Below are positions 2,023 to 9,409 of a DNA stretch of 29,034 bases, piece by piece (the first letter of the stretch is position 1; the number at the start of each line of letters is the position of its first letter). Under the pieces are notes generated by a model, which made no database searches, was not told where the DNA came from, and saw only the letters and a list, made by a program, of their open reading frames with translations. Location: assembly GCA_048634225.1 (NCBI GenBank), contig JAIWAT010000001.1:1-29034 (forward strand), in the 5' to 3' direction. The DNA comes from Anaerolineales bacterium (GTDB lineage: Archaea > Halobacteriota > Methanosarcinia > Methanosarcinales > Methanocomedenaceae). Made by a program: the position numbers and the translations under genes.

Positions 2023-3519
2023 TCATCCCTCAACCACTTCCCATGTGCCTGCTTTTGTCGAACCGATCCTTTTCAACAAACCTTCATCCTTCAATTTTTT
2101 GATGTGCCATTCAACGCCTTTGGCTGTTATACCTGTCAATTCAGCCAGTTCACCAGTTGTTATATGAGGAGTTTGTGATATAATAACAATTATTTTCTCC
2201 CTAGTTTTCTCCCTAGTTTTCTCCCTGGTTTCTTCCCTAGTTTCTTCCCTAGTTTCTTCCCTAGTTTTCTCTGATTTGGTGTCCTTTATAGTGTCCCTTT
2301 CACCGACCTTCTCCCTAGTTTCCCCCGAAGCTTCACCGATCTTAACCAACGGAAACGTAATCTTATAGAAATCAATTCCACCGGAAACCACTGGTTCATC
2401 TTCATAATAAGCCTTCCAGCCATTGAACATCTTATCAAAACCGGAACCCGCATTCTCAGACAGCTTGATCACCCTGAAAATCCTTGTAATAATGGAGTTT
2501 CTTGGCATCGTGAAATCTTCTTTCATGATAGATTCAATATCCTTGGGCAGACTGCCCGGATTCAAAAACTCGATCCTGTCAAGGAACACCCTGATCCTTG
2601 GTTTCATTGGGCTGAAATAATCGGAATGCATCAAAAGATTCACAAGTGCTTCGCGTATCGCAATAAGCTGGGGCTGGTCATCAGTCGCAAACCCGTCCGC
2701 CCTCAATGTAAAAGGCAGATCGATCTTCTTCATCAGGCGTTCAAATATGCTGAAATAGAACCTGAATAGATTCTCTTCCTCATAAAGCCTGTAATTATAA
2801 CGGGTCGGTGCATCAGAATAAGACGTACCCATAATCTCCAGGTAATCAACCCTGAAATCAGTAAGCAGGCGATTAATATTATCCTCATTTCCAAAAACCA
2901 GAAGACCTCCGATCGTAACCCTGCCATCAACCACAACCTGCAACTTTTCAAGTAGCTGCTCGGTTGACAATTTATTATACCTATGCCCCGGATTCATATT
3001 CTCCATATAGGTTCTGTAATCAGTGATCGTTTTCTCGTCCAGATCATCAACCGTAAAATCCGTCAGTTCCTTATCCTTAAAACCAAAAGCAGAATCCCTG
3101 TACAATGCATCAATCTCTGCATCCGTTGCCCGCTGGTCTCCGCTGCCGGTTCTTATAAAAGTGTTTTTTCTTGAATTGAAATAAACAGGTTTCTGCTCAG
3201 ATGCAGGAACATAAAAAGCAAGAACGATCTTTTCATCAAGATTGTACCTCAAACATCTAACCCTGATCTTTTGATTGAACTTATCCCCTCTAAGAACAGT
3301 TGTGAAATCCTGCTCGATCTTTTCAGCATCCTCAACACCACTGATCTTGAATGTCTTATCAACTTGACTCACACCAAAAACAAGCCAGCCACCATTTGTA
3401 TTTGAAAATGCACTGACCGTTTCAAAACTGCTTTTGGGAATGGAAGTCTTCGCCTTTTTCACCTCAAAATCTTCCCATTCAAGTTCTTCCAACCTGTCAA
3501 ACAGTTCCTTCAGATCCAT
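2023..3519 (-). CDS. Schlafen/AlbA_2 domain + RecG-C/HATPase_c_4-like domain + C-terminal winged HTH protein
   Basis: EWEDFEVK (ExxxxExK) and SAFSNTNGGWLVFGV mark AlbA_2. IREALVNLLMHSDY, IEFLNPGSL, RNSIITRIFR and ENAGSGFDKM mark the HATPase_c_4-like domain. The C-terminus is a wHTH. Confidence 0.85.
   Translation of the reverse strand: MDLKELFDRLEELEWEDFEVKKAKTSIPKSSFETVSAFSNTNGGWLVFGVSQVDKTFKISGVEDAEKIEQDFTTVLRGDKFNQKIRVRCLRYNLDEKIVLAFYVPASEQKPVYFNSRKNTFIRTGSGDQRATDAEIDALYRDSAFGFKDKELTDFTVDDLDEKTITDYRTYMENMNPGHRYNKLSTEQLLEKLQVVVDGRVTIGGLLVFGNEDNINRLLTDFRVDYLEIMGTSYSDAPTRYNYRLYEEENLFRFYFSIFERLMKKIDLPFTLRADGFATDDQPQLIAIREALVNLLMHSDYFSPMKPRIRVFLDRIEFLNPGSLPKDIESIMKEDFTMPRNSIITRIFRVIKLSENAGSGFDKMFNGWKAYYEDEPVVSGGIDFYKITFPLVKIGEASGETREKVGERDTIKDTKSEKTREETREETREETREKTREKTREKIIVIISQTPHITTGELAELTGITAKGVEWHIKKLKDEGLLKRIGSTKAGTWEVVEG
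2193..2264. repeat. In-frame 12-bp tandem repeat, 6 copies, encoding (K/E)TRE
   Basis: TTTTCTCCCTAG x2, TTTTCTCCCTGG, TTTCTTCCCTAG x3, then a partial 7th unit. Confidence 0.95.
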
Positions 3520-3556
3520 AATCTTAATTACTCCTTATTAGACGACCCAATCCGGA

Positions 3557-5287
3557 TCAAACATCAAATCCCAACCCCGCAAGATTCTGCCTAATCTGCA
3601 CTTCAAGTTTGTCACTTTCTTCAAACTGCGCTTTCAACTTGCTTGTGAATGTGGCCATTTTCTCAGCAAACGGAATACCATCATCAACTTCTGCTTCCAC
3701 GCCCACATAACGACCCGGGGTTAGCACGAAGTCGTGTTTTTGAATCGCCGCCAGATCAGCCGAAAAGCTAAAGCCTGCCTGATTATTCTCCTCTGACCAT
3801 TCCCGTTGCCAATCGTGGAAGGTATTTGTGATCTGCTGCGTATCTTCATCCTTAAAATCCCGCAGTACACGATCTTTCATATAACCCAAATTGCGCGCGT
3901 CGATAAACAACACTTCACCACGCCGGTCTCTTTTACCGTCCTTTGCACTCTTATCCTTGGTCAAAAACCAGATACAAGCAGGAATTTGGGTATTGGTGAA
4001 CAATTGCCCCGGTAGCGCCACCATACACTCTACCAAGTCCTCCTCGACCAGAGTTCTGCGAATCCCGCCTTCGTTGTTGGTATTACTGCTCATGGAACCG
4101 TTGGCCAATAACAGCGCCATACTGCCAGTAGGAGCAAGGTGGTGCAACATGTGCAACATCCAGGCAAAGTTGGCATTACCCTTTGGTGGGGTGAGGGTGC
4201 GTTTTTCGCCGTTGGTGTTAATCGTCCAGCGTACATCATCAGCCAGTTTTTCGTGCCACCACTCCTTCATATTAAAAGGTGGGTTTGCCATGACAAAATC
4301 GGCGCGCAGGTCGGGATGCTGGTCGTCTAAAAAACTATCTGCGTTCTTTTTGCCAAAGTTAAAATCGATACCGCGAATGGCCATGTTCATAGCAGCGAGC
4401 TTCCAGGTGGTGGGGTTGGATTCCTGCCCATATACGGAGATTTGTTTTTTCTGCTCGGCGGCGTCGTAGTGTTTAACCTTGGCATGTTCTTCAATGAACT
4501 TGTCACTGGAAACAAAAAAGCCACCGCTACCCATGGCAGGATCGTACACGCGGCCTTTGTATGGCTCCAGCATTTCTACTATCAAGGTAACAATGGATTT
4601 GGGCGTGTAATACTGGCCGCCCTGCTTACCTTCGGCAAGGGCAAATTGACCTAAGAAATATTCGTAAACATGGCCGAGAATGTCTTTGGATTTAAGATTG
4701 AGTTTTTCGCCCTTGTACTCTGGATTATGAAATCTGGTGGTGCTAAATTCATTGACCAGACCAATGAGTTTGTCGGCATCCAACTGGTATTGGCTGATGC
4801 GGTTGAGAATACCTTTGAGTTTTGGGTTGGCTTTTTCGATTTCGTCAAAAGCGTTATCCATCAGCCATGACACCGAGCGCAGTTTAACGTCTTCGCCATG
4901 TTCGTCTTGCCAGATCACGCTGTTGGTGGGAAGAGTAGCTTTTTCTTTCAGGGTGTTCCAACGGGCGGTTTTGGGTACCCAAAATACGTTTTTTTCGGCG
5001 TAGTAATCATTAATTTCCAGCTCGGCTGCTATGGCTTGTTGGTACTCCTCATCGCTGTCGTAATCCTCACGGGGCAGGTAATAGATGTTATCGTCATCAT
5101 CTTTTCGAAACAGCTCAATTAGCTCTTTCTGTCGCTCTTCGAAGGCATCGGACACGTATTTGAGGAAAATCAGCCCTAACACCACGTGTTTGTAGTTAGC
5201 AGCATCCAGGTTAGAGCGCAGTTTGTCGGCGGCCTTCCAGAGTTGGGCGTCGAGTTCGTTTAAGAATTGCTGTTCAATATTTTTCAT
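3557..5287 (-). CDS. hsdM: Type I restriction-modification N6-adenine methyltransferase subunit M
   Basis: LWKAADKLRSN N-terminus, GQYYTP, VYDPAMGSGGFF (SAM binding), ANPPFN (catalytic), and LTPGRYVG. Confidence 0.97.
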   Translation of the reverse strand: MKNIEQQFLNELDAQLWKAADKLRSNLDAANYKHVVLGLIFLKYVSDAFEERQKELIELFRKDDDDNIYYLPREDYDSDEEYQQAIAAELEINDYYAEKNVFWVPKTARWNTLKEKATLPTNSVIWQDEHGEDVKLRSVSWLMDNAFDEIEKANPKLKGILNRISQYQLDADKLIGLVNEFSTTRFHNPEYKGEKLNLKSKDILGHVYEYFLGQFALAEGKQGGQYYTPKSIVTLIVEMLEPYKGRVYDPAMGSGGFFVSSDKFIEEHAKVKHYDAAEQKKQISVYGQESNPTTWKLAAMNMAIRGIDFNFGKKNADSFLDDQHPDLRADFVMANPPFNMKEWWHEKLADDVRWTINTNGEKRTLTPPKGNANFAWMLHMLHHLAPTGSMALLLANGSMSSNTNNEGGIRRTLVEEDLVECMVALPGQLFTNTQIPACIWFLTKDKSAKDGKRDRRGEVLFIDARNLGYMKDRVLRDFKDEDTQQITNTFHDWQREWSEENNQAGFSFSADLAAIQKHDFVLTPGRYVGVEAEVDDGIPFAEKMATFTSKLKAQFEESDKLEVQIRQNLAGLGFDV

Positions 5288-5407
5288 TATTAGTGACTTC
5301 CATTATTCAATTTACTGCACTGATGCCTGTGCCCTTTCCATGCGATTCAGGTGTCCGGTTTTATGCACTGGGGATGTACCGCAGCTACATGAAATAATGC
5401 TAAAAAA

Positions 5408-6343
5408 TTATTTTAGTAGCTTATTAATATGTTGTCCAAAAACGGTTTGAAATTTTTCTGCGGTAATCATTAACCAATCAAAATATTGATCCCATTTTTC
5501 CTTTTGGTTAATATCTGCATCATTTGATAATTTAATTCTACTAGCTTTTTTCCCGTCAAGAGCCATCCATTCTAATTCTGCTTGTAATTCTTCCTCTATT
5601 TTATTTTTATTAGTTTCTAATTCGTAATAAAGGTCTTTGGAATCTGGAATATATATTTCACAGGCCATTAAATTTGTTTGACTATTAGTTGTTAATGAAA
5701 TATACGCCTTCGAGTTCCCAATACTAATATCATACCAATGTTGAGGATATGCTTTTCTTAATTTTAGTTGTGATGACTTATTTTGAGCATATTCTTTAAA
5801 TTGATTCCAAAAATCTAATTGCAAGACTTTGGTTTCTGTAAGATTTGATTGTCTAGTTGATTTCTTAACAGCTTTTGCCCAATCATTAGGTTTGGAAATA
5901 ATATTGAATTTTGGCGCACATGGGGAATTACCTATTTGCCATAATTCCATTTTTATTGCAAAAAAATTAACTTTTTCATCTGTATGTTCATTTAGCCAAT
6001 CAATTGCTTGTTTATGCTCATCTCTAACATCTTTTACAATCCAAATTATTATTTCAGCATCATAACCTGAAGCATAAGTAATCGTTTTACCTAAATGATC
6101 ATGATCAGTTACTTCCAGTTGATTTTCTATTACGATTTTTTTACCTGTATTCTCTTCTTCAGCTAATATATCTACATTAAATTTTCCTACACTTGCTTCA
6201 GTTTCTATTAATAAAATATCAATGCCAATTTCATCACTCAATAAAGCAAGATTTTCTTTTTCTGATAACCACGTTGTAAAATCAATTGCTTCATGATTCC
6301 ACACCTTTCTTAAGTCGACTTTTTTTAGTGTCTCTAATTGCAT
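5408..6343 (-). CDS. DUF4268-domain protein with an N-terminal PD-(D/E)xK (NucS/EndoMS-like) nuclease domain
   Basis: LRKVWNHEAIDFTTWL, VDILAEE...IVIENQL...DHDHLGKTITYA, and a C-terminal PQHWYDISIG...KASRI region. Confidence 0.8.
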   Translation of the reverse strand: MQLETLKKVDLRKVWNHEAIDFTTWLSEKENLALLSDEIGIDILLIETEASVGKFNVDILAEEENTGKKIVIENQLEVTDHDHLGKTITYASGYDAEIIIWIVKDVRDEHKQAIDWLNEHTDEKVNFFAIKMELWQIGNSPCAPKFNIISKPNDWAKAVKKSTRQSNLTETKVLQLDFWNQFKEYAQNKSSQLKLRKAYPQHWYDISIGNSKAYISLTTNSQTNLMACEIYIPDSKDLYYELETNKNKIEEELQAELEWMALDGKKASRIKLSNDADINQKEKWDQYFDWLMITAEKFQTVFGQHINKLLK

Positions 6344-6363
6344 GATTAAATTTTATGATTACA

Positions 6364-6381
6364 TTGTATAAATCTTTTTTG
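6364..6381 (-). promoter_or_regulatory. Putative BRE/TATA promoter of the DUF4268-hsd unit (leaderless mRNA)
   Basis: Minus strand reads AAAAAAGATTTATACAAT; TTTATA lies about 24 nt upstream of the ATG at 6343. Confidence 0.5.
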
Positions 6382-6449
6382 GATTTACTGTAATATTTCA
6401 AAACGGAAAAACTATGCAAATATTTTTAATATTCTAATAAATGGAAGCT

Positions 6450-6517
6450 AACTGCCGATGAACACAAATAAACGCAGATACAACCAAATCCGCATTCATC
6501 TGAGTGTATCTGCGGTT
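6450..6517. repeat. Hairpin A: imperfect inverted repeat, 30-nt arms built of three ~10-nt subrepeats, AAC...GTT termini
   Basis: AACTGCCGAT GAACACAAAT AAACGCAGAT [8-nt loop] ATCCGCATTC ATCTGAGTGT ATCTGCGGTT. Confidence 0.8.
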
Positions 6518-6524
6518 AACATTG

Positions 6525-6620
6525 AAATGCTTCCAGCCCCCCTCTCGCCTCCACTCTGCCCAGGTGCCCGTCCCGCTCAGCTCCGCCCGCCCTTGTGGTG
6601 TGGGGGCTGGCAGGCGCTTT
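6525..6620 (+). repeat. GC-rich direct repeat R1 (copy 1)
   Basis: Aligns with 7312-7417 (shared CCCCCTCTCGCCT, GGTGCCCGTCCCGCTC, TGGTGTGGGGG.TGGCAGGCGCTTT). Has an internal inverted repeat CCAGCCCCC / GGGGGCTGG. Confidence 0.9.
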
Positions 6621-6760
6621 TTCGGTGTCTTATATATAAATACGAATTAGTGTCTGGACTTCTGCATGAATATAGTAAATGAATATTTCAATATATTTGA
6701 GAACCAAAAAGATAAATAATTTAAACTCTGTTATTTCATTGAAAATTGGAATTGATTTGA

Positions 6761-6895
6761 ATGGGTAAAATAGAATCTCGTGAAAACGAGCCAAAAGACA
6801 AGAAAGCCGGTGTTTTGACAAATGAAGAGAAAAGACACCTCGAAGATAGCATGCACCATAATGACAAGCTTATGAGACAATTAGCACACATGTAG
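6761..6895 (+). CDS. Unannotated 44-aa peptide, candidate Doc antitoxin
   Basis: MGKIESRENEPKDKKAGVLTNEEKRHLEDSMHHNDKLMRQLAHM*. The C-terminal amphipathic helix ending in L..LA resembles Doc-neutralising antitoxin tails. It overlaps the doc 3' end by 15 nt. Below the ORF-track cutoff. Confidence 0.55.
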   Translation: MGKIESRENEPKDKKAGVLTNEEKRHLEDSMHHNDKLMRQLAHM

Positions 6896-7252
6896 TGGAC
6901 GGACTTTTTCTCTCAACCATTTTTCAATTTCTTCAACTGAACATTTATATTCAGCAATTTTAATAAGTGCTTGAAGTATTTCTTTATCATTTGCATGGAT
7001 ATGCATTCCTTCTTGCCTAAGTAGAATATCTGCAACTTGGAAACCAGTTCTCTTATTCCCATCCATAAATGGGTGACCAATGATTATGCTATGCATTACT
7101 AACGATGCTTTTTTAAGTACATCATTTTCTTTTATAAACAAATAAATAAGATATTCAATACTTCCTAAATTTAGGATTCCATTAAGGCCTCCATATTTTT
7201 CTATGACTTCATTATGAATCTCTATAATTTTCTGTGCAGTTAATTCACTCAT
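6881..7252 (-). CDS. doc: Death-on-curing (Doc/Fic) family toxin
   Basis: HPFMDGNKRTG Doc motif; IIEIHNEVIEKYGG N-terminus; 123 aa. Confidence 0.9.
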   Translation of the reverse strand: MSELTAQKIIEIHNEVIEKYGGLNGILNLGSIEYLIYLFIKENDVLKKASLVMHSIIIGHPFMDGNKRTGFQVADILLRQEGMHIHANDKEILQALIKIAEYKCSVEEIEKWLREKVRPLHVC

Positions 7253-7311
7253 TCAAATAACAAATACTCTTAAATGGAATTATAGGTTTTGTTAATGTTC
7301 CAAATTGTCTA

Positions 7312-7417
7312 AAATGCTCCACTCCTTCCGCCCCCTCTCGCCTTCACTCTACCCGGGTGCCCGTCCCGCTCTGCTCCACCCTGCCGCCCTTTTGGTGTGG
7401 GGGTTGGCAGGCGCTTT
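7312..7417 (+). repeat. GC-rich direct repeat R2 (copy 2)
   Basis: Second copy of R1 with small indels; both start AAATGCT and end GGCAGGCGCTTT. Confidence 0.9.
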
Positions 7418-7541
7418 AATAGTGCCACGTGGATGCATGGGTATCCGGTGGTTCGGGGGTGCGAAGTGGATGTTATGTTAGTTAGCTGCCGGTGACAGTT
7501 GAAATATATAATAAAAGATATGCATGTGGCTATCCCTACCC

Positions 7542-7576
7542 CTGCCACCGCAGCCCGTTAGGGCGGCAGGTGGCAG
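7542..7576. repeat. GC-rich hairpin with a bulge and a mismatch (REP-like)
   Basis: CTGCCACC GCAGCCC [GTTA] GGGCGGC A GGTGGCAG. Confidence 0.7.
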
Positions 7577-7604
7577 CCAACCTTGTGGATTTGTGTAAAC
7601 TTTG

Positions 7605-7674
7605 AACCGCAGAGGACGCGGAGTACGCAGAGCATTTTTCCTCTTCTCTGCGTACCTCTGCGAACTCAGCGGTT
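7605..7674. repeat. Hairpin B: imperfect inverted repeat with three 9-10-nt CGCAGAG subrepeats per arm, AAC...GTT termini
   Basis: AACCGCAGAG GACGCGGAG TACGCAGAG [loop] CTCTGCGTA CCTCTGCGAA CTCAGCGGTT. Confidence 0.85.
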
Positions 7675-7948
7675 GGTATTGAACTGATTCCAGGCCCGAG
7701 TGTATGAGTTTCTATGAGAGGCCGGGGTTTCAGGGTGGTGGAAAAGTACAGGCAGACCGATTTTCCTGACTCCGGATCATTCTGCTGTTTTACAGAAGCT
7801 ACAATATGCATTTTGAGGCAGCAGCATGTCCAATAACTAACAGTTTTCAACGAAAATTAGAGGTCAATTTGCTTTTCTTTGAAAGTCAAGTCAAACTCTG
7901 CCACATATCTGGAATAACATATTCCCTTAATAAGCAGGGTTGAGGTTT

Positions 7949-8236
7949 CTAAAACATACGCTCAAGGGCTTGCCTGGCAGGCATTCCCACTTCAATTCCC
8001 AGATCGTCCGCAGCCTTAGTGGCCTCAACCACACCGGCTGCCAGCACGTCCTCGAAATTCCTGACACCCGTCACCTTTACAGCCACGTCGTCCAGGCGTT
8101 CTGCCATGGATATATCCAGGTATCCGCACATTACAAAACCCCTGGGTGCCCTTATGACCAGCAGCGGCGCATGCTCCATATCAATTTTCAGGCCCAGTGC
8201 GGTGCCGTTTTCCAGTTCAATGGATTCGATTAGCAT
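7949..8236 (-). CDS. DUF1805 / YunC family protein
   Basis: PLLVIRAPRGFVMCGYLDI...AVKVTGVRNFEDVL family pattern; 95 aa. Confidence 0.85.
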   Translation of the reverse strand: MLIESIELENGTALGLKIDMEHAPLLVIRAPRGFVMCGYLDISMAERLDDVAVKVTGVRNFEDVLAAGVVEATKAADDLGIEVGMPARQALERMF

Positions 8237-8239
8237 ATC

Positions 8240-8339
8240 TTAATCCAGTATTTTTAGTTCTGATGACTGGCAGGCAGGACAGCTTACTTCCCATACCTTT
8301 GAATCTGTTACCACATGCACTGCATTCATATCTTGCCAT
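8240..8339 (-). pseudogene. Small zinc-ribbon protein gene with an apparent frameshift
   Basis: MARYECSACGNRFKGMGSK in one frame; CPACQSSELKILD* in a shifted frame, ending TAA-GAT-ATG at the DUF1805 start. The 100-nt span is not a multiple of 3. Confidence 0.6.
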
Positions 8340-8450
8340 GGCAGCAACGCTCAGGTCCACGCTATCGGCAGCGCTTGAATCAACAAAACACATATTATAC
8401 TGCACCTCATTAGATAGAAATCCATTATAGGTAATAAGATTTCTGCCGAA

Positions 8451-8479
8451 CCGGCAAACACTGGCAAACACTTATATAT
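8451..8479 (+). promoter_or_regulatory. Putative TATA promoter of the SPOUT/r-protein operon, with a tandem 10-bp repeat just upstream
   Basis: CCGGCAAACA CTGGCAAACA C TTATATAT; ATG follows at 8495 (leaderless-type spacing). Confidence 0.5.
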
Positions 8480-8494
8480 CTCTTACAATATCAT

Positions 8495-9409
8495 ATGCGG
8501 AAAGTACTTATGCCATCTTTAGCCCAGGACAGAAGAAGTCCAGACCTGACAATACTTATACCCTCATCCCTGACATCAGAAACAAGGGACAAGAGAATAA
8601 AGACGTACAAGGTCGGGCAGATTGCAAGAGCGGCATCAGTGTTCAGGGTCGGGAAGATAATCATCTACCGTGACCCGCAATTCGATGACAGTAGGTTTAT
8701 AGACCTGCTGCTGAGATATGCAGAGACACCACAGTACCTGCGAAAACACCTGTTCCCCCTCAGGGAGGAACTAAAGCATGCAGGGGTGTTACCGCCGCTA
8801 AGGACACTGCATCATCCCATCGAATCAAGATCATCGAACCTCAACGAAGGAGAATTCCGGGTTGGGGTAGTGGTCCCAGGACCACAAAAAAAGAAAAGCG
8901 AGAAAAAAGTCGGATCTGACAAGAGTGCATGGGTCGATATCGGAATCGATAGCCCGGTCCGCCTCGAAGCACCTTCAAGGAAAGTGCGGAATGGCGAGCG
9001 CATTAATGTCAGAATCTTTTCGCGAAGACCAATACAAGCAAAGCTGGTAACAAAGGACGAGATCCCCATGTATTGGGGATACCGTACAGCAGTAGAAGAC
9101 AGCCTGTCAGGGGCGCTGGAAAAGATTTCAGAAGAAGGTGCCCTGATAATCGCCACATCCCGCCAGGGTAAGTTGCTCGACAACACACTCCTGGCACAGA
9201 TCGGTGATCGGACAAAGCAGTCTAATAATACTGCTGTGGTATTTGGCTCACCCAGGCAAGGTATAGAGACCATACTGGCCGATGAGGGTTTCAAACTCCC
9301 GGACTTCCATTGTGAAGTGCTCAATACCATACCCGGACAGGGAACAGCCACAGTAAGGACAGAAGAGGCCGTATGGGCTACACTGTCTGCGTTGAACCTG
9401 GTCAGGTAA
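8495..9409 (+). CDS. SPOUT-family RNA methyltransferase (DUF171 / MTH1-like)
   Basis: KTYKVGQIARAASVFRV, YAETPQYLRK, VVFGSPRQG, NTIPGQGTATVRTEEA; conserved position upstream of rpl3 in archaea. Confidence 0.9.
   Translation: MRKVLMPSLAQDRRSPDLTILIPSSLTSETRDKRIKTYKVGQIARAASVFRVGKIIIYRDPQFDDSRFIDLLLRYAETPQYLRKHLFPLREELKHAGVLPPLRTLHHPIESRSSNLNEGEFRVGVVVPGPQKKKSEKKVGSDKSAWVDIGIDSPVRLEAPSRKVRNGERINVRIFSRRPIQAKLVTKDEIPMYWGYRTAVEDSLSGALEKISEEGALIIATSRQGKLLDNTLLAQIGDRTKQSNNTAVVFGSPRQGIETILADEGFKLPDFHCEVLNTIPGQGTATVRTEEAVWATLSALNLVR

Follow-up and report, generated by a model that had tools for sequence, protein, structure and literature searches.

The window analysed here, i.e. the whole 29,034-nt stretch of contig JAIWAT010000001.1, comes from a metagenome-assembled genome (MAG) of a methanosarcinal archaeon that consists of 140 contigs and is 57% complete. 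Part of it is taken up by a gene for a Doc-family toxin and a convergent 44-aa partner open reading frame (ORF), with one copy of a C-rich repeat (called R for simplicity; copies R1 and R2) on either side and with further hairpins and repeat modules around them (Table 1). We propose, at a probability of roughly 0.6, that R, a non-hairpin repeat of ~95-120 nt specific to marine Methanosarcinales of the ANME-2 type (ANME, anaerobic methanotrophic archaea), separates the cassettes of variable gene arrays, and that these arrays are integron-like and reshuffled by recombination at a transcribed repeat that is not an attC site. As part of the same proposal, the window would hold a minimal one-cassette array, made up of Doc and the 44-aa partner, where a variable defence island with type I restriction-modification (R-M) genes and a DUF4268 gene comes to its edge, adjoining a ribosomal-protein operon. 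An initial annotation of this DNA, made from the sequence alone, had described GC-rich direct repeats bounding an AT-rich Doc module, and these proved to be real: R1 and R2 lie in the same orientation and are 87-94% identical, in one pair of blocks (6538-6588/7331-7381) at 90% and in a second (6587-6620/7384-7417) at 94%, the two blocks being separated by a 4-nt indel, and the GC content is 0.62-0.63 in the R bins versus 0.24-0.40 in the enclosed module. When the entire assembly was searched with R1, R2 was the sole other match (E = 8.8e-25).

Table 1. Features of the Doc locus, in window coordinates.
Feature	Position	Strand	Basis and remarks
H1 hairpin, periodic arms	6455..6525	+	fold z = -3.3 vs shuffles; inverted repeat 6469-6489/6498-6518
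R1, C-rich	6528..6621	+	12-nt terminal inverted repeat 6530-6541/6602-6613; GCGC and T-run at end
AT-rich junction	6622..6706	.	unique to R1 copy; not in the Doc modules of G009, G012, G011
44-aa Doc partner ORF	6761..6895	+	candidate antitoxin, convergent with doc
Doc-family toxin, 123 aa	6881..7252	-	Pfam PF02661, HPFMDGNKR motif
R2	7322..7417	+	repeat search; fold z = -0.09
Tail A, G-rich extension	7418..7480	+	subfamily listing; also present in G005 and the arrays of L206 and L180
Short GC hairpin, then TATA-like A/T box	7485..7517	+	comes after tail A in most copies
'Mid' element, GC hairpin module	7520..7595	+	repeated elsewhere
H2 strong hairpin	7600..7676	+	fold z = -6.9 vs shuffles; dispersed family, 8 copies in genome
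Leader-like fragment and frameshifted 3' remnant of small gene	7683..7788	+	array and variable region stop here

The consensus of R was derived from alignments of 47 and 72 distinct copies. Its core of ~95 nt starts with CTCCTGCCGCCCC and ends with GGGGGCTGGCAGGCGC followed by a T-run, and it is built of a 12-13-nt imperfect terminal inverted repeat (paired in 50-69 of the 72 copies, depending on the position) that encloses ~60 nt which are C-rich or pyrimidine-rich on one strand. The ends of the consensus, CTCCTGCC at the start and GGCAGGCGC with the T-run at the other side, contain no AAC or GTT boxes in these 47-72 copies, in line with the earlier remark that R1 and R2 lack the RYYYAAC/GTTRRRY ends of attC sites. 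Many copies are preceded by a leader of ~25 nt, shortened in R1 with respect to the family consensus, and an A/T-rich box is found ~30 nt 5' of the R start (72 copies). On the 3' side, about one quarter of the copies (including R2) continue into the G-rich tail A and one third into a distinct G-rich tail B; the remaining copies stop sharply after the T-run, as R1 does after ~12 nt. After tail A there usually come a short GC hairpin and then an A/T box, which is seen as an A/T peak at +183 to +200 from the R start (72 copies). Sequence blocks of R are conserved across three families. A coding function of R was considered and rejected: ORFs traverse R, but their frame is not conserved, since the lengths of the indels between copies are not divisible by three.

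R extends well beyond this locus. It was detected in 18 of the 19 other genomes of the same family, with up to 35 matches per genome. Across the order Methanosarcinales, R was present in these 18/19 genomes of family f1, in 6/6 and 1/13 genomes of the genera g28 and g17 of family f4, and in 3/49 genomes of f3:g6. An exact-pattern scan over the genomes of 185,579 species gave matches only in MAGs assigned to Methanosarcinales, Methanosarcinaceae, the ANME-2 cluster or Methanococcoides, several of which bear cold-seep isolate names; the same pattern matched 79 metagenome contigs and no contig of IMG/VR. Neighbouring R copies less than 4 kb apart were then compared for their orientation. They were co-oriented in 73 of 74 pairs at genome loci and in all 205 pairs at metagenome loci (278 of 279 pairs together). 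The spacing of the copies is bimodal, with ~100-300 nt between cargo-free repeat units and ~0.4-3 kb where cargo is enclosed, and some gaps of 4-6 kb between R copies contain operons. The strict co-orientation of R has no counterpart in the genes: cargo ORFs ran in the same direction as R in 44 cases and in the opposite direction in 43, and flanking genes of at least 150 aa in 101 and 98 cases, respectively. A replication or gene-strand cause of the co-orientation was rejected on the basis of the latter counts. In the 70-contig assembly of G011, 8 out of 9 contigs have their R on the plus strand, a borderline bias that is probably due to chance or to an assembly convention. The identity between R copies was 77.5% within a genome, 77.2% between genomes and 74.7% between genera; R copies are thus no more alike within than between genomes, which fits a shared, mixed pool.

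Between the R copies we found small accessory modules, mostly of the toxin-antitoxin (TA) and defence types; cargo of this kind is known from chromosomal integrons, including archaeal ones (PMC9668308). Pfam assignments of 20 cargo proteins yielded the TA-related families HicA, HicB-like, ParE (three hits, plus one Gp49/ParE-like), PIN (three times) and TumE, as well as defence-like or accessory proteins, i.e. GNAT, SnoaL, PLD-like, nitroreductase, MFS, RhuM, DAG-kinase-like, PD-(D/E)XK and cupin. A two-gene module encoding proteins of 239 and 226 aa had no Pfam match and is shared between genomes: the copies of G004 (genus g1) and G011 (genus g3) are 94% identical over 1.5 kb and a third copy in G009 is 90-94% identical, versus ~74% identity for core DNA between g1 and g3. 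In all three genomes the module lies between R copies and antiparallel to R, and the neighbouring cassettes differ. The module itself (L040 10526-11927, L042 6538-7939, L050 1376-2789) is a candidate TA or defence pair. For other cassettes the identity across genomes and genera amounts to 86-95%, and G004 and G007 have HicAB and ParE cassettes in common with a different cassette in between. Among close homologues the orientation of the cargo relative to R is nearly always constant; many of these loci may not be independent.

The region around the window's array is variable between populations as well. Synteny with five genomes of the same genus begins at ~7856-7896, and everything to the left of this point is variable. 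To the right of the break, the genes for DUF1805, the methyltransferase and the ribosomal proteins are common to all five genomes; to its left, the gene content differs from genome to genome and consists of ribosomal/RpoD genes, of a chaperone operon, of a transporter or of a further R array. G005 carries a different R array at the corresponding site. Two metagenome contigs, L206 and L180, match the window from 2990 to 6403 (HsdM, DUF4268) at 90-91% identity and continue past the equivalent of 6403 into R arrays with a nitroreductase cassette, to which L180 adds a TetR gene and an ABC transporter; neither contains Doc. The two contigs are 98.6% identical to each other and L206 is ~480 nt longer, as it has two more R units with tail. 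At the joint of this indel, the duplicated overlap spans the leader and continues into R for its first ~57 nt. A joint of this kind is the trace that recombination of one R copy with another leaves behind. Breakpoints were also collected from pairs of loci. Among the R copies with at least 90% identity between two loci in the 200 nt upstream of R (n = 107) the alignment persisted at the R 5' edge in 97, at the 3' end in 79 and just past R in 39 cases, and among the copies with conserved downstream DNA (n = 94) it persisted at the R 3' end in 77, in the first third in 61 and just upstream of R in 35 cases. The ends of blocks that are at least 88% identical cluster between R positions -20 and +20 and between +100 and +120. 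As every R copy is similar to the others, the breakpoints can be located to R or its edges, and the data do not define a single crossover point.

Taken together, these observations can be accommodated by the following scheme. Conservative recombination between two R copies would remove a segment bearing one R, and the reverse reaction would insert an R-bearing segment at any other R; recombination might be ordinary homologous recombination via the conserved R blocks or might be performed by a dedicated enzyme. Conservative exchange of this type would keep all copies in one orientation and the orientation of each cargo relative to R fixed, and it would explain the co-orientation, the R-bounded indels, the replacement of cassettes and the placement of the breakpoints at R. 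The initial annotation had proposed a non-autonomous, repeat-bounded and integron-like system with TA cargo; the co-oriented arrays, the TA and defence cargo and the swapped cassettes agree with this proposal, whose recombination mechanism is the part that we infer.

The transcription of the region was assessed with Logan contigs of four runs that cover 5300-8600, namely the RNA library of a metatranscriptome (X16), two DNA libraries and a further one (X17) that is probably DNA. Depths refer to assembled contigs and are summed over all R copies and organisms in a sample. In X16 the depth was ~34,000 in the R1 bin, ~19,000 in the R2 bin and ~9,000 in tail A, as compared to ~300-550, ~54-211 and ~61-79, respectively, in the three other libraries. 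The DUF1805 and methyltransferase genes reached 300-1,200 in X16 (~14-79 in the others). Over the DUF4268 gene the X16 depth was 0 for most of its length and over doc it was 0-40 for most of the gene and 67 in the last bin, and the three other libraries were even at ~2-19 and ~6-17, respectively. The near-silence of these two neighbours argues against DNA carry-over in X16. The A/T box at about -30 and the 3' T-run would, as far as the sequence goes, fit a small unit of transcription located on the C-rich strand. In the cassette scheme R may double as a small transcription unit or as a terminator between cassettes.

The same data raise the question whether R is in the first place an RNA element, i.e. 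a multi-copy small-RNA gene or a terminator or insulator between TA modules, with recombination as a by-product of its repetition. Many RNA contigs of high depth over R and tail A with few or none over doc and DUF4268, the A/T box and the T-run, and the conservation of the R blocks across three families would all suit an RNA gene. The structural analyses point the other way: six folds on both strands gave z-scores of -1.0 to +1.6 relative to shuffled sequences and no hairpin (R1 itself, with z = -0.75, has no extra stability), RNAalifold and pair counting yielded no consensus structure, variants in the terminal stem mostly break pairs and show no compensatory changes, and an Rfam scan of 5300-8600 at E <= 1 returned a chance-level match only. 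Moreover, the RNA contigs extend through the T-run into the tails with loose ends, and a terminator role would leave the strict co-orientation of R unexplained, given cargo that points both ways; nor would a role at the RNA level alone account for the constant orientation of the cargo. We therefore regard a primary role as RNA element as quite unlikely. Transcription together with the conservation of the R blocks over three families suggests that R may be more than passive homology.

A number of results weigh against R being a cassette separator. The source genome, incomplete as it is, holds just two copies of R. R copies that surround the same cassette are no more than 70-85% alike and the stretches linking R to the cargo (the 'tails') are variable, so that no precise crossover point can be defined. 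The RNA signal, being the sum of contigs over R copies and organisms, cannot be assigned to R1 or R2, to a strand or to ends. Neither circles, for which the initial annotation had suggested a search, nor excision products were seen in the Logan contigs over 5300-8600. Joints that had looked like excision products (6621 to 7422, skipping 800 nt, or going back by ~794 nt) were rejected as such, since they lie on short contigs and are explained by other R copies (chimeric R copies, or R with tail A). Together with the small convergent ORF, the Doc module is also found in G009 and G012 (80-81% identity) and partially in G011 (78%) with no R adjoining; it is hence not defined by R, contrary to the earlier view of an R-bounded Doc cassette, and by sequence comparison cargo can move or persist independently of R. 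Lastly, no candidate enzyme emerged. No protein family recurs at the array ends, and tyrosine (PF00589) and serine (PF00239) recombinase matches in five relatives were all located off the examined array contigs, a test for an integrase near the arrays that is limited by the fragmentation of MAGs. We clustered 860 ORFs in and around the arrays and found no recurrent enzyme, the three largest clusters being spurious ORFs that read through the repeats. In the source genome, the window's contig has no PF00589 match, confirming that no such recombinase is nearby, and the two matches of the genome are on contigs C17 and C139. G011, which is reported to be 100% complete and has 23 R matches, contains no tyrosine recombinase above the Pfam cut-off and no resolvase.

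We considered whether R could be a small non-autonomous insertion element, similar to miniature transposable elements with inverted repeats (MITEs) or palindrome-associated transposable elements (PATEs), that inserts strand-specifically into the spacers separating accessory genes in defence islands, shuffling being secondary homologous recombination. The sharp ends of the minimal R copies with their imperfect terminal inverted repeat of 12-13 nt, the modular combination of R with the H hairpins, the tails and 'mid', the cargo-free rows of R units spaced 200-330 nt apart and the Doc module found elsewhere without R are features that one would expect of such an element, and Y1 (HUH) transposases are present in all five relatives tested. 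Nine Y1-transposase loci, however, contained no R, H or tail sequence (other insertion sequence (IS) families were not surveyed), and no parent element with R ends was found; the co-occurrence of a tyrosine recombinase or a Y1 transposase with R that the initial annotation had considered was consequently not borne out near the examined arrays. Nor is there an evident target-site duplication at the minimal R copies, or any genome-specific burst, as the identity of R copies is the same within and between genomes. An insertion element would also have to account for a co-orientation of 278:1, which holds even over 4-6 kb and is independent of gene orientation, and for the constant orientation of a cassette relative to R across loci. 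On this balance we consider an insertion element unlikely. As an observation on the Y1 genes themselves, L124, L125 and L126 contain an element of ~2.8 kb around them that is 80-92% identical between genomes, has no R or H and is probably an IS200/IS605 element with tnpB.

Returning to R as a cassette separator, a more specific version can be formulated, which we put forward tentatively and consider rather doubtful. R would be the recombination site of a dedicated gene-capture system of ANME-2-type archaea that is functionally integron-like, acting on a double-stranded, non-hairpin and transcribed site by means of an enzyme unrelated to IntI, in which transcription of R or the R RNA might take part and by which TA and defence cassettes would be moved between co-habiting methane-oxidising archaea of different families.

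The cargo of the window's own array was characterised further. The Doc protein matches the Pfam family Fic/DOC (PF02661) at 1.5e-11, and the HPFMDGNKR stretch in its translation corresponds to the motif that defines Doc, HxFx[D/N][A/G]NKR. No antitoxin ORF was found upstream of doc. The 44-aa ORF and doc are convergent and their 3' ends overlap by 15 nt, a layout that is unusual for a pair of the Phd/Doc type. The small protein has no Pfam match to Phd and a weak match to DUF7667 that is under the cut-off. Its ORF is kept in G009, G012 and contig L131, with 16 changes at third codon positions versus 6-8 at positions 1 and 2. A predicted complex of Doc and the 44-aa protein obtained a model score of 0.89 (best control 0.00), a mark that, when the tool was calibrated, was attained by 51 of 78 solved complexes and by 2 of 108 mismatched pairs, and its contacts include residues around the catalytic loop. 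The modelled complex makes it plausible that the 44-aa protein is the antitoxin of Doc. The homology of G009:C3 to the Doc module begins at window position 6707. A look-up of exact proteins found Doc on two short contigs, one of which (L130, 1,051 nt, from another sample) reaches the repeats; it follows window 6570-7622 colinearly between R1 and the 'mid' element, with an identity of 94%, which means that the lineage concerned has kept the order R1-Doc-R2-tail stable. The same look-up found no record of the exact DUF4268 protein.

Besides R, the locus contains several other repeated modules. The hairpins on either side of the Doc module are real, but the nested unit with enclosing hairpins of the initial annotation had to be given up: H2 is part of a block 3' of R2 (R2, tail, TATA-like box, 'mid' hairpin and H2) and not of a cassette shell, and an H-type hairpin directly 5' of the R leader is a recurrent composite in relatives (~16 of 72 copies). 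The H-type hairpins (H1 and H2 in the window; L039, L041, L053 and others) have arms made of 9-10-nt sub-repeats of the GCAGAG, GCAAAG and CTGTGT types. Hairpin families with such arms are similar to repetitive extragenic palindromic (REP) sequences and are located at a fixed distance 5' of R in relatives. The A/T box that follows tail A in the window is, from its composition, a candidate promoter. The 'mid' module belongs to a separate abundant repeat family, with a contig depth in the seep-metagenome DNA that equals that of R and a depth in the RNA library that is roughly ten-fold lower. In the gene remnant at the right end of the array, tblastn with a 105-aa ORF of G004 (L040 15917-16234) gave matches in two frames at 70-71% identity. 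The leader-like bases sit within the reading frame of this remnant, and the R leader might therefore derive from the end of such a gene.

ANME archaea control the release of methane from the sea floor. To our knowledge, they have neither been grown in pure culture nor made accessible to genetic tools, and their gene exchange is largely unknown. If a defined repeat marks where exchangeable TA and defence cassettes are joined, it would offer a concrete and testable way into the study of how genes flow and strains diversify in ANME-2. R is common to three families of Methanosarcinales from cold seeps, and its identity among them exceeds that of their core genes. Should there be a dedicated enzyme, R would belong to a new site-specific recombination system, and if homologous recombination suffices, R would be a portable homology element that is kept in a shared cassette pool.

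In the literature searched, we found no description of the R repeat or of ANME-2 cassette arrays. The known systems closest to the R arrays are the sedentary chromosomal integrons and the clusters of attC sites lacking integron integrases (CALINs), such as the Vibrio arrays with their VCR sites and the archaeal ones (Ghaly et al., 2022; PMC9668308). As in these, co-oriented conserved sites of ~100 nt lie between small cassettes, the cargo is rich in TA modules and acetyltransferases, the cassettes are reshuffled and shared between taxa, and most arrays have no adjacent integrase. One could thus suspect that the array is an ordinary integron remnant, i.e. a CALIN with divergent attC sites and an IntI encoded elsewhere, in view of the matching layout and cargo type and of the archaeal integrons on record, which are mostly CALINs (PMC9668308). 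We consider this very improbable. In contrast to attC sites, R forms no hairpin and has no R'/R'' boxes or RYYYAAC/GTTRRRY ends; it is transcribed and has a C-rich strand, there is no precise border at which the site gives way to the cargo, and the cargo genes are not co-oriented with R but point either way. No IntI or attI was found and no tyrosine recombinase lies near the examined arrays, nor does G011 with its 23 R copies have one above the Pfam cut-off, and the archaeal integron paper mentions neither Methanosarcinales nor ANME (PMC9668308).

Cis-mobilizable elements (CIMEs), tycheposon-like and 'additive' islands, in which elements devoid of an integrase accrete in tandem at one att site, resemble the R arrays in that small modules with direct repeats as their bounds follow one another at hot spots and the content varies between strains. 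They differ in that R is no copy of a tRNA or of a gene end, the arrays are located at ~9-12 unrelated loci per genome and no integrase-bearing helper was seen. MITEs, REP sequences and bacterial interspersed mosaic elements (BIMEs), and the IS200/IS605-derived PATEs have in common with R that they are small, GC-rich and intergenic, possess terminal inverted repeats, associate with further repeats and may bring along promoters or terminators. Unlike them, R is near-absolutely co-oriented, shows no target duplication, has no parent IS and is not palindromic; the REP-like parts of the present locus are the neighbouring H hairpins and not R. Finally, strain-variable islands with hicAB, parE, doc and type I R-M genes, for which structural variants are reported, have been described as hotspots in ANME-1 (PMC13385816, 2026). 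A word search of that text gave no integron, recombinase or repeat separator, whereas the genomes studied here are of the ANME-2 type and share a defined repeat. The R arrays would complement these ANME-1 hotspots and would extend the integron idea to a type of site that is invisible to current integron finders.

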